Source: Sedimentisphaerales bacterium
GTDB lineage: Bacteria > Planctomycetota > Phycisphaerae > Sedimentisphaerales > Anaerobacaceae
NCBI GenBank assembly: GCA_963708075.1
Contig: OY970194.1
Location: 672,001 to 736,000 of the forward strand
DNA length: 64,000 nucleotides
Reading direction: 5' to 3'
Shown: one piece after another, positions 39,928 to 48,430 of the stretch
Numbering within the stretch: the stretch's first letter is position 1
How the letters are laid out: each line of letters begins with the position of its first letter
The notes under the pieces: generated by a model
Told to the model about the DNA's origin: nothing
Databases searched by the model: none
Seen by the model: only the letters and a program-made list of their open reading frames with translations
Position numbers and translations under genes: made by a program

Positions 39928-40034
39928 TCTTGTAGTTGATAGCGCAAACGGTGATTCCAGAAACAGGATCATGTTACACAGCGGGGCCTGTACCAGGTAC
40001 GGGCCCCGCCCTTATAGCAGCAAAGGACCCAAGA

Positions 40035-43015
40035 ATGATGTTCACCCCAAGGATGCTCGTGTGCAGCGTGCTCTCTCTCTTCTGTCTTGAGACTACCATC
40101 TTCGCCGGCAGTGCGGCCACACGCACAGCGGACCCTGCTGAGAGCGGCGGTCCCACGCGTGCCTTGGGTTTCTACAAACCCGGCCAGCCGGTCCCGCTTG
40201 AGGAAGGTTTTCGCGATCCCCCGGCGATCTCTCGCGTCCAGTGCTGGTGGCAGCCGCCCGGCAGCCCATTTACCAAGGACGAGATTACCCGTGAACTCGA
40301 GGAGTTCAAGGCGAAGGGCATGGGAGGAGTGACTATCAAGGACACGGGCGAGATGCCTCGCGATGAGCGTACGGTCCACATCAAGGACATTCCGTTCATG
40401 AGCGAACAGTGGCTGGACATGTTCGCGCATATTGTGGCCGAGTGCGGGCGTCTTGAGTTGATCTGCCGCAGCCGGTCGAGCAGCGGATGGAACGAGGGGG
40501 GGCCGTGGATTCCACCCGAAATGTCCATCAAGACACTGGTCTTCGCCAAGTCGCAGCCGCTTCAGGGGCCGACAACGTACTCAGGACCGATTCCCCGCGA
40601 AGTCCCGGAAGCACGAAAAGCCGTCGCCCGGGCTGAGACGCCACAGGTGCCCAGTCCGACGACCGAGCAGTTCAAAAGCGGGCAGGCCTTTGTGCTCGCC
40701 GTGTGCGAGGACGACCAGCGCGTGGTCGATCTGACCGCGAAAGTGTCGGAGACCGGCACGCTCGTGTGGAGTGTCCCGAGCGGCCGATGGAGTCTGCTGT
40801 CGTGCTATGGAAAGCCCACCGGCAAAAAGCTTGTGTCAACCAGTGTGAGCGGTGGCGGCCTGCATGCCGATAACCTCAGTGCCGCCGCGGCCGACCTTCA
40901 CATCCGGGAATTCATGGAGCGGATGCGGACGAGGGTCGGCGGATTTGAGAACACGGCCTTCGATGGCTTCAACAGCGACGGCTTCGAGCTGGGCCTTCCC
41001 ACCTGGACGCCGGGACTACGGCAGTTCTTCATGCAGCGGTGCGGCTACGACCCGGTTCCGTTCTTTCCTCTGCTGGCCGGCTACGATCTTGGCCAGGCCG
41101 GCCAGCGGTTCCTCTACGATTTCAGGACCACTGTCGGGGACCTCATTGTCGCGAACCACTACAGTCACTATAGTGCCTGGTGCCGGGAGCACGGCGTCGC
41201 TTTCGATGCGCAGTGTGTCGGCGGACCAAGCCATCGGCATACGCACGATTTCCTCACCGCCTGCGGCGCCGTGGATATCCCGATGGGCGAGACCTGGATT
41301 CACGGCGCGCATATGTCAAGATGGCCTCTTCCGCAGCTCATACGTATGGCAAGCGGCTGGTCGGCCTTGAATACGGGACGCAGAAAGCCTGGTTTTACGC
41401 TCCCACGCCAGCCCTGCTGAGAATGCGGGCTGATGAATCGTTCTTGCTCGGCGCCAACTACTTGTGCCTTCCTTGTGTAGATTATACGCCTCCCGAGGCC
41501 GGGTATCCCGGATGGGTCCATTCTCAGCCCGACCGCTTGGGCCTGGGCCAGACGTGGTGGCCGCTCTCTCGCCCACTGTTCGATTACCTCGCCCGTTGTT
41601 GTTTCCTGCTGCAGTCGGGAAAGCCTGTGGCCAGTGTCGCTGTATACAACAGTTTTCATAGCCGGGCGAACATGGTCTGGCTGTCTCCCGACGACGACAA
41701 GCTCTCCAGCCTTCCGAGGCAATATGATTTCGACTACGTCAGCGATGACCTCCTTGTGAACCACATGCGCGTCGAGGACGGTCGGATCATGCTGCCCTCG
41801 GGCGCAACGTACGAAATCCTGTACATTCCTCCTGCCGCCGTCTACTCGGGCGGCATGGGGCCCCGGCCCACGGCTTTCACAGAGCCGCGCGTCGATATGC
41901 CGCTGGAGAGTCTGCTGAAGATCCGCGACATGGTTCGCCAAGGCGCGACGGTGGTCTGGGCGGGTGAGTTGCCGAAGCGATCTCCGAGCCTGAAGGGACA
42001 ACCTGATGCCGATATGAATTATGAAGCTGCGATCAGGGAGTTGCAGGCGGACCGGCGGCTGACGAGGCTGCCGGAGCACAACTGGAATGCACTTGTTCCG
42101 ATGCTCGCCAAGAGCGCCCAACCGCCCGCGTGGCAACTCTCCGGGGATGTGCCGCTGCGGTTCGTTCATCGGCGTCTGCCGAACGCGGACCTCTTCTTCA
42201 TCACTCATCGGGGAGTGCAGGATAGCTACAAGGATATGACCGACCTGCTATGGGCGAGGAAGATGGACAGCGGGGCCATCGTGCATCAGCTCTTCGCGGA
42301 GACACGTCCAGTCGAGACTTCCGTCACGTTCCGTATCAAGGGGCGCCGGCCGGAGTTCTGGTGGGCTGAATCCGGGCGGATCGAGCCGGCTCCCTGGCAG
42401 GAGACCCCCGAAGGAGTATCGGTAACGGTCAAACTGGAGCCCTATGCGTCGGTCTTCGTCGTCTTTCGCGATGCTGCGAGCAATGAGCGGCAGGCGAAGA
42501 GTGACAAGCGACAAGCGGCGGGTAACGGACAGACCATCGAAGGGCCGTGGGAGTTGAGATTCCCGGCGGGCTGGAAGACGCCTGAAAAGGTCACTCTTTC
42601 GAGCCTGAAGTCCTGGACGGAAATGGAGGACATCGAGGTCCGGCACTTCAACGGCATCGCTGCATACAGCACGACGTTCACTGTCGCTCAGGACGCCCGC
42701 GAAGGAAAGAAGGCGGAGCTGGATTTGGGCCGGGTGGCGGATATCTGTGAGGTGTGGCTCAATGGGCAGCGTGTGGGGATCGCCTGGCAGGCCCCGTACC
42801 GCGTGGACATCACTGACGTGTTGCGCTCCGGTGAGAACCGCCTGGAAGTGCGGGTGACGGCTACATGGCACAATCGTCTCGTTCGTGATGCAGCCCTGCC
42901 GAAAGCCGAACGGGTGAGCCGCATGTACCCTGAGGCTCACTACGCCAGATTCAAGGGCCGTAGTCTCATCGAATCCGGCCTCCTGGGCCCTGTGCGGCTC
43001 GTTTTGGGCCCGTGA
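40035..43015 (+). CDS. GH106 (alpha-L-rhamnosidase-like) glycoside hydrolase; frameshift at ~41301
   Basis: GFRDPP...WWQ, KAKGMGGV, SGWNEGGPWI, SDGFE, DIPMGETW, then KMASSAAHTYGK, YLARCCFLLQSG, LDLGRV, ESGLLGPV; one missing base after ETWI joins the frames. Confidence 0.85.
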
Positions 43016-43417: not shown

Positions 43418-43441
43418 CGTTATGTCGGACCCGACATAACG
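43418..43441. promoter_or_regulatory. ModE-type operator palindrome
   Basis: CGTTATGTCG-GACC-CGACATAACG, perfect 10-bp arms matching the CGTTAT-N12-ATAACG ModE box geometry. Confidence 0.8.
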
Positions 43442-43466: not shown

Positions 43467-43658
43467 ATGAAGTCGCAAGAGGAGTTGACCAAGGCGGTTC
43501 TCGAACGGTCCGGAGAGGTGAACGGTCGCCGGACCTTGACGTGCGCCCAGGCCCTGAGCCTTGCGGCCGAGCTCGGTGTGAAGCCGGTCGAGATTGGCCG
43601 CATCTGTAATCAGGAGAATGTCCGCTTGGGCAGTTGCCAATTAGGTTGTTTCTCGTAG
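43467..43658 (+). CDS. Small Cys-containing protein (LTC...ICN...CQLGCF)
   Basis: 63-aa ORF with AAGGAG RBS and four cysteines, directly upstream of the ModE-like gene. Confidence 0.75.
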
Positions 43659-43674
43659 GAGGCACACGAGGGCG

Positions 43675-44826
43675 GTGGAGAAGCTCAAACCAAGGTTCAA
43701 GCTGTGGCTGGATAGCGAAGACGTCCACGGCGTGTTCGGGGGCGGCAAATGCCGGCTGCTCGAAAGCATTGAGAAGACCGGCTCGCTACGTGCCACTAGC
43801 GATGCGCTGCACATCAGCTATCGCAAGGCGTGGGGTGATCTGAAGAAAGCTCAAGCTGCCCTGGGCATCGTTCTGATCGAGCAGCACCGCGGCGGTCGCC
43901 AGGGCGGCCGGACCGTGCTCACCGAGCAAGGGAAGCAGTGGGTCCAGGCCTACAGCCGGTTTCACCGAGACGTCGAGGCCGCGGTGCAGACGTCCTTCGA
44001 AAGATTCTCCCGGGAAGTTGCATCCCGGCGAGGCTTCAGTCTGATCGAGCTGCTTGTTGTCATCTCAATCGTGGCCCTGCTCATGGCTCTCACTTTGCCG
44101 GCAATGGGGCGTGCACGGGCACTGGCAAGGCAGGCCGTCTGTCAGAACCGGCTGCACCAGTGGGGTTTGGCCTTCGCCGCGTACGCCGCAGAGAACTCCG
44201 GATACTACCCGCACGCCGATGGCAGGGACCGTTCCGGGGATGAAGAGCCTTTCACCCGCGAGGGGATCGCGGACTACTGGTTCGGATGGGTGGATGTCCT
44301 GGCGCCTCTGGTGGACGAGAAGCCCTGGCGCGAGCATACCCGAGGTGCCTATCCGGGCGTCAAGACCGTATTTCAATGTCCCTCTGCGGCGCTGGCGCCC
44401 GAGTCGCTGTACTCGTACAAACCGTTGCGGAACGGGTTCTTCTCGTATGCCATGAATTCCTGTCTGGAATTGGATGCCAACTGCTGGGCCCCTTATGGTC
44501 AGACGGGCGGCAACAACATGCCCAGCTTCCTGGATACGGCACGGATCAGGACGCCCGGGCGCGTGATCCTGCTCTTCGATCAGTTGCTGGACTCCTCGAA
44601 GGGATACGGCGGCAATGAAATCAACCGTTCGGCGGGCCGCCACTGTGGAAGTTACCCCAAGGCCTTCAGCGCCCACCACGCCAAGCCGGGGGGAACGCTC
44701 GGCGGCTTCATTCTCTATTGCGACTACCACGTTGGGTGGAAACAAACAGTCTGGAAAGCCGAGTGGCCGGCGACCCCCGATTTCGAGGCGCCGCCCCGGG
44801 ACGATCCGGACTGGTATCCCTACTAA
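43675..44826 (+). CDS. Fusion of ModE-like winged-HTH domain to a DUF1559-type prepilin
   Basis: Residues 1-112: KLWL...[20 protein letters not shown]...ISYRKAW...[12 protein letters not shown]; residue 120 on: [51 protein letters not shown]; no stop codon between. Confidence 0.85.
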
Positions 44827-44831
44827 GAATG

Positions 44832-44859
44832 TACGATTTATGATTTACGATTTACGATT
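44832..44859 (+). repeat. Tandem heptamer TA(C/T)GATT x4
   Basis: TACGATT TATGATT TACGATT TACGATT immediately before the RBS of ORF 44875. Confidence 0.8.
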
Positions 44860-44874
44860 TGGAGGATCAGAGAG

Positions 44875-45906
44875 ATGGTGCACAAGAACAAGACTTGTAT
44901 GAAGGTCGTCGTTTCGGCTGTTTGCATCGCGTGTGTACTTCCGTGCCTCGCGCAAGGTGGCGTTCTGACCATTCCTGAGATTCAGTACACCGAGTCGCCT
45001 GACGGGGCCAGCCTTTACAGCGGAAAGACCGTCGATTGCCTCGGGGGCATCGTAATCGCCAAGGTGGCCGGCGGACGCCCCCGGCTGTTCCTGCAGGATC
45101 CCAACGCCCTCGACGGCTGGGGCGCCATCCAGATCAAGGGTTGGGTCAGTGACGCCTTCGCCAGTGTGAGCGTCGGGGACTGGGTCGAGATCCGGCAGAC
45201 CTTCGTCGAGGAGTTTCGCGGGACGACGTTCCTGCAGTACTGGGACAAGAATCCCGACGGTTCCCAGCCGGTGCTGACGGTCGTGAGTCATGGCCATAAC
45301 CTCCCCCAGCCGCTCGTTGTAGACGTGAATGAAATCAAAGCGCCCGAGTACCTGCTCACGGAAGATGCCTGGTCCGTGGCCAATCACCGGGCGGAGAGAC
45401 TCGAGTCCATGCTCGTGCAGATTCGAAACGTGGTCGTGGTCGAGCAGGGCATGGGCAAGGCGCAGGACAACTACGAGCTCCAGTTGTTTCGCGAGCCGAA
45501 CGATATGGGCGCCCTTTGCTGGGCGAGCGACTATGCGAACAAGGATCGAAAGAAACCCGATCTGTACCTGCCTGGGGTTGAGACGGGCCGGCGCTTTCGA
45601 GCAGTGACCGGCGTGCTCGAGCAATACACGAACCTGGGCGAGGGCTTCGATTACTATCAGCTCCTGACGTTGAGCGAAACGAGCCTGGTGGGGCTTTGCC
45701 CGGCAGACCTGGATGAGGACGGCGACGTCGATCTTTGGGATTCCAAGCTGTTCATCGAGCAATTGCTCTCGCCGTCTTTGCCCTTGGCAGGCGATCTGAA
45801 CCATGATGGAAAGGTGGATTCAATTGATCTCGATCTGTTCAATGCGGCGTGGCAGCAGGCCGATGTGAACGGCGATGGTATCGTAGATGGCGATGACCTC
45901 GATTGA
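44875..45906 (+). CDS. Secreted protein with OB-fold-like domains and C-terminal dockerin/EF-hand motifs
   Basis: Signal peptide; TIPEIQ, VGDWVEI...EEFRGTTFL, ERLESMLV; ADLDEDGDVD, GDLNHDGKVD, ADVNGDGIVD. Confidence 0.7.
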   Translation: MVHKNKTCMKVVVSAVCIACVLPCLAQGGVLTIPEIQYTESPDGASLYSGKTVDCLGGIVIAKVAGGRPRLFLQDPNALDGWGAIQIKGWVSDAFASVSVGDWVEIRQTFVEEFRGTTFLQYWDKNPDGSQPVLTVVSHGHNLPQPLVVDVNEIKAPEYLLTEDAWSVANHRAERLESMLVQIRNVVVVEQGMGKAQDNYELQLFREPNDMGALCWASDYANKDRKKPDLYLPGVETGRRFRAVTGVLEQYTNLGEGFDYYQLLTLSETSLVGLCPADLDEDGDVDLWDSKLFIEQLLSPSLPLAGDLNHDGKVDSIDLDLFNAAWQQADVNGDGIVDGDDLD

Positions 45907-45989
45907 TGACGGATGATGGATTATTGATGATTGGCAGACACGCTGGGACACGCCTTTTCAATCATCCATCATCAATAATCAATCATCAA
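45902..45989. repeat. Inverted array of GAT(G/T)AT(T/G) heptamers, hairpin-forming
   Basis: GATGATG GATTATT GATGATT ... AATCATC CATCATC AATAATC AATCATC. Confidence 0.7.
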
Positions 45990-46009
45990 GGATCTTAAGG
46001 AGACCGAAC

Positions 46010-46645
46010 GTGAAAAGAGAGTACATTCTGGGAGTGTTGTTCTTCGGCGGCGTGTGGGGTATATCGGAAGCGGTGTTGGGGGGTGCTCTCTATGCCTCGC
46101 ATGTGCCCTACGCATCCGTGCCGCTGACGGTCGTAGGCCTGGCGGTCCTGACCGTTGCGAGATCGTATTTCCCGCGGAGAGGCACACCCACGCTTGTCGC
46201 GGCCTGTGCCATGCTCTACAAATTCCTGAACTCACCATTCTTCGGGTGTCATTTGGTGGGAATCCTCATTACCGGGGCCTGCTACGACCTCGTGTTCGAC
46301 GTGCTGAAGATCAGACTGAAGTCCCTTGCGGCGGCGGCGACAGTGTACCTCAGCTATGCGGCATTCGCTCTGATGATCACCTACGTGTTCCGGTACGACC
46401 ACTGGGTACAAGGTGGGATCGCCAACGTGCTCCGGCACACCTTCATCGGAGGCAGCATGGCTGCGTTGGCTTGTGCCTGCATCGTCCCCCTGAGTGCAGC
46501 GGCCGGCGAGAGACTCAAGGCGTATTCCACCACGCCCTTCGGGCTGCTCCGACCCTCGATCCCCGGCGGAATCTCTGCCGTGACCCTCGGGTTATGGGCG
46601 TTTGCCGTGGCCACGTGCCTGCTGAGCAACCCCTCCATCCGATAG
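46010..46645 (+). CDS. Small polytopic membrane protein, possibly ECF S-component-like
   Basis: 211 aa, about 6 TM segments, FGGVWGISEAVLGG start; AAGGAG RBS before GTG. Confidence 0.55.
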   Translation: MKREYILGVLFFGGVWGISEAVLGGALYASHVPYASVPLTVVGLAVLTVARSYFPRRGTPTLVAACAMLYKFLNSPFFGCHLVGILITGACYDLVFDVLKIRLKSLAAAATVYLSYAAFALMITYVFRYDHWVQGGIANVLRHTFIGGSMAALACACIVPLSAAAGERLKAYSTTPFGLLRPSIPGGISAVTLGLWAFAVATCLLSNPSIR

Positions 46646-46654
46646 GTGTTCCAC

Positions 46655-47194
46655 ATGATGCTTTTCCTGTGGACGGGGCCGAGGCACTGCGGCAAGACAA
46701 CCGGGGCTGCGAGGCTTGCCCGTATGGCGGGGCAGTGTGGCTTCCGTGTGGCCGGACTTCTTGCACCTTCAGTCTACCGGGACGGACATCTTGTCGGATT
46801 CGATGCACTGGACTTGGCTAGTGAAGCCCGAGCCCCACTGGCCGTGCGCCGGGATGATCCGGGCGACGTCGGGTCGTTCCACTTCGTTGAAGAGGGACTG
46901 ATACTCGGCAGTCATGCACTTGATGTGGCCGCGACCGAAGGGGTGGACCTTGTCGTCGTCGATGAGTTCGGTCCGCTGGAGCTTGCATCCCGGGGCTGGC
47001 GCCGAGCTGTGGATTCGCTCGTCTACGCCGGCAGGACGCCGCTTCTCATCGTTGTTCGCCGGGAGCTGGCCGGCGCAGTCCAGGAGGTATACGCAGATGT
47101 CCCCAGCAGAGTCCTTGATGCCACTGCCCCTGAATCTGCTCATGAGGTAATTTGTATGCTGAGAGATAATCGAGCCGCAGGAGAGACAGGGTGA
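46655..47194 (+). CDS. THEP1/DUF2478-like P-loop NTPase
   Basis: TGPRHCGKTT, GFDALDL, DLVVVDEFGPLE. Confidence 0.8.
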   Translation: MMLFLWTGPRHCGKTTGAARLARMAGQCGFRVAGLLAPSVYRDGHLVGFDALDLASEARAPLAVRRDDPGDVGSFHFVEEGLILGSHALDVAATEGVDLVVVDEFGPLELASRGWRRAVDSLVYAGRTPLLIVVRRELAGAVQEVYADVPSRVLDATAPESAHEVICMLRDNRAAGETG

Positions 47195-48330
47195 TTCGGC
47201 TTGAGAACATGCTGATGATCGGCTCCTCCGGATCCAATGTCGGCAAGACCGAGCTGGCGTGTACGCTGCTCCGACGACTTGGTGGCAATCACCGGATCGT
47301 TGGTGTCAAAGTGACTGCCATCGAGGCCACAGATGGGTCGTGTCCCCGAGGAGGGCAGGGCTGCGGCGTCTGCTCCTCGATGGATGCGGAGTATCGGATA
47401 ACAGAAGAAACGGATCGCCATGTTGGCAAAGACACCGCGAGGCTTCTGGCGACGGGCGCCGACAAGGTATACTGGCTCCGCGTCATGCGGACACATCTGT
47501 GCCAAGGCTTGAGCGCCCTGCTCGAAGCCGTGGGTCGTGACACGGTTCTGATCTGTGAATCGAACTCATTGCGGCAGGTAGTGGAACCGGGGCTCTTTCT
47601 CATTGTCGATCGCACGGATCGCAGGTCCTGGAAGCCCTCTGCACAACAGGTAAGACAGCACGCCGATAAGATCGTGCTCTCTGACGGCAGTCGTTTCCAT
47701 CTCGACCTCGGACGCATTCAGCTCGCGGGGCCCCGATGGCTGCTGACGGAGGACGCGACCGCCATCGTGCTGGCCGGAGGACACAGCCGACGAATGGGCG
47801 CAGACAAGAGCATGCTCCCGATCAATGGCCGACCGATGATCGAGCATATCTGCCGGCAACTCCGCGGCACATTTGCCAGGGTGCTCATCAGCGCCAATGA
47901 CACGGAGAAGTTCTCCTTCCTCGGCCTGGAGGTCATTCCTGACAGGATACCCGACCAGGGGCCGCTGATGGCGGTCGCCTCGGCCCTGGAAGCCTCCAGC
48001 ACCGAGTTCAACCTAGTCGTAGGCTGTGACATTCCGCGGATCCGATTGCCCGTCGTCAGACGAATGCTCGCCGAAGCCGCCGAAGCCGACGCAGTCATTC
48101 CGGTAACCGAGGATGGGAAGGAGCAACCTTTGTTTGCCGTCTACCGCAGGAGCATTCGCCGGGCCATGAATGAGGTCCTCGAATTGGGCGGCCGGCGACT
48201 CAGTCAGATCTACGATTCCTGCAAGGTGCGTTTCATGGCTCTCGATGATCAGAACTGGTTCGCAAACCTGAACACGATGGCCGACTATGAGCGATTCCGG
48301 AGCGGATACAATGCTCGCAAGCCCTTATAG
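47191..48330 (+). CDS. mobA: Molybdenum cofactor guanylyltransferase fused to an N-terminal P-loop (MobB-like) domain
   Basis: N-terminal GSSGSNVGKT, CPRGGQGCGVC, ESNS; C-terminal VLAGGHSRRMGADK, QGPL, GCDIP, QPLFAVY, NLNT. Confidence 0.85.
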   Translation: MIRLENMLMIGSSGSNVGKTELACTLLRRLGGNHRIVGVKVTAIEATDGSCPRGGQGCGVCSSMDAEYRITEETDRHVGKDTARLLATGADKVYWLRVMRTHLCQGLSALLEAVGRDTVLICESNSLRQVVEPGLFLIVDRTDRRSWKPSAQQVRQHADKIVLSDGSRFHLDLGRIQLAGPRWLLTEDATAIVLAGGHSRRMGADKSMLPINGRPMIEHICRQLRGTFARVLISANDTEKFSFLGLEVIPDRIPDQGPLMAVASALEASSTEFNLVVGCDIPRIRLPVVRRMLAEAAEADAVIPVTEDGKEQPLFAVYRRSIRRAMNEVLELGGRRLSQIYDSCKVRFMALDDQNWFANLNTMADYERFRSGYNARKPL

Positions 48331-48340
48331 GGCAATGACT

Positions 48341-48411
48341 TGGAGACGAAGGGAATCGAACCCTCATTCCGGCATTGCGAACGCCGTGTGCTCCCGTTAC
48401 ACCACGTCCCC
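48341..48411 (-). tRNA. tRNA-Ala(CGC)
   Basis: GGGGACG...CGTCTCC-A acceptor with G3:U70; anticodon arm CGGCG-TTCGCAA-TGCCG; T-loop GGTTCGATTCC; CCA not encoded. Confidence 0.93.
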
Positions 48412-48430
48412 AGGAACCACTTTCACCCGT

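Follow-up and report, generated by a model that had tools for sequence, protein, structure and literature searches.

Can a complete transcription-factor domain take the place of the leader peptide of a pilin, and what would become of it once the pilin is processed? This question is raised by an open reading frame (ORF) in a 64,000-nucleotide stretch of DNA (the window) from a Sedimentisphaerales bacterium of the phylum Planctomycetota, the genome of which is referred to as G000. An earlier note, made from the letters of the window alone, had described a ModE-like winged helix-turn-helix (wHTH) domain ahead of a prepilin-peptidase site and had interpreted the arrangement as a form of regulated proteolysis. 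Our analysis reveals a recurrent and conserved prepilin with a regulator as its leader, encoded in a cassette that alternates with WtpABC; judged from its sequence, the fusion is most likely cut constitutively. In the literature searched at title and abstract level, neither a prepilin with a regulator for a leader, nor a fusion of ModE with a prepilin, nor the present cassette was described; supplementary domain-architecture tables could list such fusions.

The fused reading frame and its operon

Translation of positions 43675..44826 (forward strand) gives a single ORF of 383 codons without internal stop, and the earlier statement that no stop codon ends the ModE part separately is thus correct. 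The ModE-type wHTH model TIGR00637 matches residues 22-110 (E 3e-19, 68.7 bits, under the cut-off of 98.5), while the prepilin-motif models PF07963 and TIGR02532 match residues 117-141, both above cut-off, which confirms the prepilin-peptidase motif that had been placed at Gly120 (GGC at 44032-44034). The DUF1559 model PF07596 matches residues 146-227 with 27.8 bits against a cut-off of 23.3. The earlier assignment to a DUF1559-type pilin is supported by this match, but the pilin body had been called a full one: the match extends over profile positions 2-74 of 268 only, and the H-X9-DG model gave no match to the fused protein in the profile search. A C-terminal H-X9-DG motif is typical of DUF1559/SBP_bac_10 proteins; the C-terminal region of the fused protein reads H335-X14-D350-Y-H instead.

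The AlphaFold model contains a confident wHTH (pLDDT 70-91 by block over residues 1-110), the last ModE helix of which ends at residue 116, before the cut site, followed by a loop (117-122), the pilin helix (123-173) and a head of low confidence. Top Foldseek matches of the model were E. coli ModE (1b9m) and the HTH-only ModE of Agrobacterium (2ijl). No Pfam match to a TOBE domain was obtained for the fused ModE, and split ModE orthologs occupy open frames of about 115-165 amino acids. Since ModE of the split relatives ends with the counterpart of A116, SRRG directly adjoins ModE, and the distance of about seven residues given in the earlier note has to be corrected.

The ModE domain and the pilin form part of an operon with the order box, small Cys protein, modE, slot and mobA. 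Its features are as follows (+, forward strand):

43418..43441: ModE-type operator, palindrome CGTTATGT-N8-ACATAACG, 25 nt upstream of the first gene
43467..43658 (+): 63-aa protein without Pfam family, with four conserved Cys (C26, C47, C57, C61)
43675..44022 (+): HTH-only ModE, residues 1-116, without Mop/TOBE, as prepilin leader (TIGR00637 below cut-off; ModE fold matches)
43984..43986 (+): in-frame GTG (Val104), possible internal start of a pilin with a 17-residue leader; unsupported
44023..44034 (+): SRRG, which the junction comparison identifies as the end of the leader of the ancestral pilin (four residues), with the predicted PilD cut after Gly120
44035..44826 (+): mature DUF1559-like pilin of 263 aa and about 29.3 kDa with Phe+1, Glu+5, hydrophobic helix and Cys/His-rich head (PF07963, PF07596, TIGR02532)
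44875..45906 (+): secreted protein with C-terminal dockerin-like repeats (PF00404), found after the pilin in 37 loci
46010..46645 (+): conserved membrane protein with several helices; likeness to an ECF S-component is a lead only
46646..47194 (+): NTPase_1/DUF2478 P-loop NTPase (PF03266 and PF10649 above cut-off)
47191..48330 (+): MobA-type Mo/W-cofactor guanylyltransferase with N-terminal P-loop domain (PF12804; TIGR02665 E 2e-39, below cut-off)

The upstream ModE box of the earlier note was recovered as well. It fits the motif RTTATGT-N8-RCATAAY, which is bound by ModE of M. acetivorans (PMC12327845), is kept before fused and split operons alike (116 distinct flanked sites) and is the only strong site of the genome (score 30.9, next best 15.2, shuffle maxima 14.0-18.8). 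A wider ModE regulon was rejected, as no second site in the genome rises above shuffle level. The 63-aa protein directly precedes modE in 67 of 81 mapped loci from several phyla; it has no Pfam family and its Atlas clusters are unnamed, and we regard it as a candidate metal-sensing partner of the sensor-less ModE. For the membrane protein, the Atlas provides PF09605 as a lead (score 0.82, in 23% of cluster members); searches of PDB and Pfam with its alignment yielded nothing consistent and no match to the membrane protein of locus L074, and its single-sequence fold reached a pLDDT of 44.5. The N-terminal region of the dockerin-type protein is possibly an OB-fold, for which a weak RPA match (E 0.15) was the only hit. 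The N-terminal part of the MobA-type protein, in which no model matched, is called MobB-like by resemblance. A tRNA-Ala(CGC) gene lies directly past mobA on the opposite strand (48340-48412). Homologs of formate dehydrogenase alpha and fdhD, a likely W/Mo client, are found about 16 kb past the window (G000:C1:751983-754813), and such genes also flank the operon in loci L047 and L053.

The fusion is genuine and not an assembly error. The assembly does contain apparent indels: PilD is found in two frames, and so is a GH106 alpha-L-rhamnosidase at 39936-43015, probably by indel error. Nevertheless, we consider the chance that a sequencing or assembly artefact produced the fusion to be negligible. 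Across 43980-44045, where verification of the reads had been advised, contigs of two studies cross the junction without gaps. Two of them (X1 record 1, 43710-44183; X2 record 11, 43910-44302) show 0 differences and 0 gaps and stem from two runs of one study (P1), possibly the window's own source; the third (X5 record 29), from a separate study, spans the junction with 22 substitutions and 0 gaps. A metagenome locus with 98% identity (L150) has an identical junction, and the difference from split sisters amounts to an in-frame 36 nt. The architecture was also encountered in other genomes, where the earlier note had suggested looking for it: among the best 120 of 739 matches, at least 12 full-length and at least one C-terminally truncated fused homolog (13 in all) share 57-96% identity. 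In one further contig (X3 record 19, depth 4.45), position 43672 is connected with 44026 by 29 other letters, as if it came from a relative without modE, and locus L153 similarly has a pilin seemingly without full modE.

Fused and split junctions among relatives

In relatives, by record titles mostly Sedimentisphaerales/Phycisphaerae with many co-assembly records labelled Pirellulales, we compared 80 distinct modE-pilin junctions of genomic and metagenomic loci, of which 70 consist of two genes and 10 are fused; the count skips loci without the anchor patterns, and the pattern permitted only G, A or S at position -1. As the query that retrieved these loci was the fusion or the ModE part of it, the fused share is inflated, if anything. 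Almost all split pairs overlap or abut (66/70), by ATGA/GTGA overlaps (52), in-frame stop+ATG (12) or TAATG (2), and four are arranged otherwise. In an order-wide sample, ModE was found in a frame of 379-393 aa in two of 47 ModE-positive genomes (G000 and G121); in the others it mostly lies in frames below 170 aa, with seven weak matches in frames of 268-281 aa.

A tree of 53 rows, from which duplicates, four short matches (L021, L057, L058, L089) and L056 had been left out, distributes 18 fused rows over five groups and requires at least four changes of state. Monophyly of the fused forms, and thereby a single origin of all fusions, was rejected (p-AU 9e-91). Fusion is a derived minority state that has arisen several times. 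The window's group nests among split relatives of the stop+ATG type with a bootstrap of 100, and compared with its in-frame stop+ATG sisters L141, L143 and L145 exactly 36 nt are missing, beginning at the stop codon. This deletion took the stop, the ATG of the pilin and 10 leader codons, but spared all of ModE and the xRRG motif with the following F. The spacing between Trp89 and Phe+1 takes four values among fused forms (28, 32, 44 and 45 codons), and that of 32 codons is shared by two close groups and the distant L045/P0038 (up to three lineages), a recurrence that might reflect selection on linker length. For the two nearest groups with short linkers, the test did not reject joint monophyly (p-AU 0.056); the trees of both gene halves separate them while differing in detail. 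One fused group (L003, P0008) retains the ancestral ATG, which in L003 goes along with a Shine-Dalgarno-like GAGGTG. At dS values of 0.4-1.3, fused pairs have a dN/dS of 0.15-0.21 in the ModE half and of 0.07-0.20 in the pilin half; some dS values of this comparison were saturated. Both halves are under purifying selection.

Other proteins are found N-terminally of DUF1559 prepilins as well. Eight long matches included RIC (DUF542 plus hemerythrin) twice and GntR-LacI, a Ser/Thr kinase and PepSY once each, although singletons among such partners may be errors. The partner proteins are P0124, P0127, P0126, P0125, P0129 and P0123, one of which carries what we take to be a PEP-CTERM-like tail. 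At G000:C1:6281746-6283710 (+), an enzyme-like ORF, SGNH/GDSL-like by its motif, continues without frame change into a prepilin that has retained an ATG of its own, either as a real fusion or due to a lost stop. HTH-only ModE, in turn, is fused to MobA, MobB, HD and FmdE domains elsewhere. When fusions of ModE with other pilins were sought by profile, none of the best 150 rows had both halves in one stretch; as the fused protein itself is absent from the representatives, this search says little. A single messy sequence, P0246, has ModE and then a DUF1559 prepilin and looks frameshifted.

Predicted processing of the fusion product

The cleavage motif is strictly kept. In 20 of 20 fused rows, of which 13 were selected by homology (including that of the window) and seven by a pattern containing the motif, with some near-duplicates, position -1 is occupied by Gly in 14 and by Ala in six, position +5 is always Glu, and positions -3 to -6 vary. 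Gly or Ala at -1 also holds for 13/13 of the proteins selected by homology, and no fused form examined is without the motif. Its retention could be a matter of inheritance or could serve an internally initiated pilin. For S. sanguinis, it is reported that Gly or Ala at -1 is cleaved and Ser is not, that Glu+5 is needed for assembly rather than for cleavage, and that leaders comprise 8-18 aa (PMC6497953). PilD is described as acting from the cytoplasmic side without other proteins on leaders of variable length (PMC10191384); another GxGD protease cuts MBP fusions (PMC2947513), which we did not count as support. In the literature searched, we encountered neither a case of PilD cleaving downstream of a folded domain this large (about 116 residues) nor a demonstration that DUF1559 prepilins are processed.

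The fused genomes G007, G018 and G121 each encode PilD in an uninterrupted frame (382-420 aa) that includes the two catalytic Asp motifs. The PilD of the window's assembly lies in two frames, probably by an indel error, and that of G228 is split at a different place. The genome of the window contains one PilD-type gene and two peptidase-only A24 genes in Tad-like loci, together with about 83 prepilin-like genes; beside this one PilD-type peptidase gene, it has over ten platform loci of the GspF/PilC type and 14 matches to secretins above cut-off.

Taken together, we regard it as probable that the fusion is a self-resolving polyprotein, from which PilD would restore the ancestral free ModE and the mature pilin. 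An HTH-only modE and the adjacent prepilin gene of the DUF1559 type, coupled in translation, would have merged several times, and the product would enter the membrane like any other N-in signal-anchor protein, leaving ModE on the cytoplasmic side. Housekeeping PilD would then cut after Gly120, behind the folded domain of 116 residues, and release a mature pilin of 29.3 kDa and a ModE of 120 aa (13.6 kDa), i.e. the ancestral free ModE plus four residues, which may bind the single box of the operon and repress it. The fusion would fix a 1:1 synthesis of ModE and pilin; it was presumably tolerated rather than specially selected, with a cut that is most likely constitutive. Release of ModE by prepilin peptidase appears the likeliest outcome because the fusion is conserved, the motif is kept, the box is of the ModE type and PilD is intact in genomes of fused lineages. 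Of the earlier proposal, release by PilD is therefore retained as the likeliest outcome, while regulated proteolysis as a dedicated feedback device is not borne out: split operons keep the box, and NTPase and mobB share a frame just as often.

That release is nonetheless regulated, with tethered ModE being inactive and PilD processing gated or rate-limiting, so that repression would report pilin processing or W/Mo status, seems unlikely to us. The topology would permit it, this ModE comes without a Mop sensor domain, and the fusions recur and persist to the dS values given above; moreover, the unique box precedes its own operon, and a TTGACA...TTTAAT pair just upstream of it in several relatives (seen by eye in L020, L025, L061 and L063) has the geometry expected for a repressor. 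On the other hand, split relatives have the same box and operon (70/80 junctions are split), nothing specific to the fusion was seen in the operator or the pilin, and the predicted fragment differs from the ancestral free ModE by four residues only. That a single PilD-type enzyme serves about 83 prepilin-like genes, besides over ten GspF/PilC loci, also speaks against regulated release, as does the ability of PilD to complete processing without other proteins (PMC10191384), and the propensity of HTH-only ModE to fuse extends to MobA, MobB, HD and FmdE. Frame sharing between NTPase and mobB, another overlapping pair of the operon, is as common (5/25 versus 5/40 for modE/pilin, P = 0.49; four of the five NTPase/mobB pairs were inspected, each with its own Met), and this control lends no support to the idea that fusion is specially favoured at the modE/pilin junction.

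Two further readings dispense with release or assign the pilin to a start of its own. The protein might stay uncleaved as a transmembrane one-component regulator, comparable to ToxR/CadC, in which a single membrane helix links the wHTH in the cytoplasm to a head in the periplasm that could sense W/Mo. Its architecture and the missing sensor of ModE would fit, the context ties the pilin head to W/Mo uptake, and PilD may be hindered by a folded domain at a distance of four residues from the bond to be cut; yet Gly/Ala-1 and Glu+5 are invariant and the site was lost in no fused form, a linker that varies between 28 and 45 codons is more in keeping with a cut site than with a signalling helix, and the pilin body is interchangeable in the tree with stand-alone pilins, which makes this reading rather improbable. 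We give little credence to two products from one frame, in which the pilin is mostly initiated internally (at GTG 43984, or at the retained ATG elsewhere) and the long form supplies ModE only. The GTG, which the earlier note had pointed out, is indeed preceded by GAGG 5 nt upstream, L003 keeps ATG and GAGGTG, and P0002 and P0038 have Met at position 104. However, the GTG pre-dates the fusion, and selection as a start finds no support: the position is start-capable in 5/5 short-linker fused loci and in 9/12 split sisters (P = 0.51). In addition, L140 is without GAGG, L050 and L164 have GTT at this position and no ATG, and ModE would still be made only as a fusion that needs to be cut or acts tethered. 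Release from a self-resolving polyprotein remains our preferred reading.

The pilin cassette, the WtpABC slot and known systems

The context of the fusion may matter more than the fusion itself. In 76 loci, the slot between modE and mobA contains the pilin in 37 cases, WtpA in 22 and a TiaS-like protein in five; in eight loci mobA follows within 2 kb, three were too short and one contains something else. When the pilin is present, it is followed in the slot by the secreted dockerin protein, the membrane protein and the NTPase (window 44035-47194, versus L075:1347-4217 for a wtpABC locus). In a set of 39 genomes, most of them selected because they encode this ModE, 26 possess the pilin ortholog, nine WtpA, none both and four neither, and pilin and WtpA alternate within genera g25 and g42. 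The Fisher test for this exclusion (P 3e-6) overstates the case, because kin are not independent, genomes are incomplete and a shared slot favours exclusion. ModA gave no match at E 1e-10 in 20/26 pilin genomes and TupB none in all 26, such that 20/26 have no match to WtpA, ModA or TupB. Elsewhere in G000, there is a weak ModA-like ABC locus without ModE box. The third filling of the slot is a TiaS-like 'DDTDN' protein plus a membrane protein (L074:7008-8271; L118:1315-6726), accompanied in the slot region of L118 (Bacteroidota) by a TonB-dependent receptor and a T9SS protein, and in L074 and L106 by a different prepilin nearby.

The alternation with WtpABC in a ModE-controlled slot, together with the 20/26 genomes without WtpA, ModA and TupB, suggests tungstate, molybdate or a pterin cofactor as candidate ligand. 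From this genomic context we tentatively propose that the pilin cassette serves uptake of one of these compounds. With similar reservation, the DUF1559-type pilin might be the capture subunit of a pilus- or T2SS-linked uptake system for tungstate, molybdate or pterin cofactor that replaces WtpABC. That PilD processing in fused lineages also frees the repressor of the operon, which would turn prepilin peptidase into a regulatory protease, appears doubtful, and the combination of both proposals, a capture pilin in place of WtpABC and a regulatory PilD, is more doubtful still. DUF1559 prepilins occur in dozens to about 100 copies per Planctomycetota genome and have no known job. If the fusion is cleaved, prepilin peptidase can process natural polyproteins, and a functional protein can serve as the leader of a pilin; since close relatives have both fused and split alleles, the tolerance of PilD towards its leaders is open to a direct test.

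The individual parts have known counterparts. With type 4 prepilins (IPR012902, PF07963, TIGR02532), the protein shares Gly-1, Phe+1, Glu+5, basic residues before the site and a hydrophobic helix of 20-25 residues, but their leader is short and disposable, whereas here it is a complete folded transcription-factor domain of 116 aa with the motif at residue 121. The match to N_methyl and SBP_bac_10 is the same as for DUF1559/SBP_bac_10 (PF07596) proteins of Planctomycetota, a family described as heavily expanded in this phylum (PMC8567305); this ortholog group differs by its place in a ModE/Moco operon, where it takes the WtpABC slot, and, here, by the N-terminal ModE. HTH-only ModE proteins, such as the single-domain ModE of Desulfovibrio and PDB 2ijl, have the same wHTH and long helix and no molybdate-binding domain, and how they sense Mo has been called unclear (PMC545781); the present one is fused to a membrane pilin and scores 68.7 versus 98.5 bits against TIGR00637. 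Full-length ModE shares the wHTH and the box before genes for Mo/W uptake or cofactor synthesis, but its Mop/TOBE domains are absent here. WtpABC occupies the same slot between modE and mobA (22/76 loci), a likeness by position and not by sequence, as the pilin cassette is without ABC permease or ABC-type ATPase. ToxR, CadC and regulators of the RseA/RsiV type are established examples of membrane-tethered regulators and of regulated intramembrane proteolysis. They have the same succession of cytoplasmic DNA-binding domain, one membrane helix and outside domain, but for the ModE-pilin fusion the protease is predicted to be the prepilin peptidase of general housekeeping, a gating step is not apparent, and most relatives have kept the two genes split as in the ancestor.
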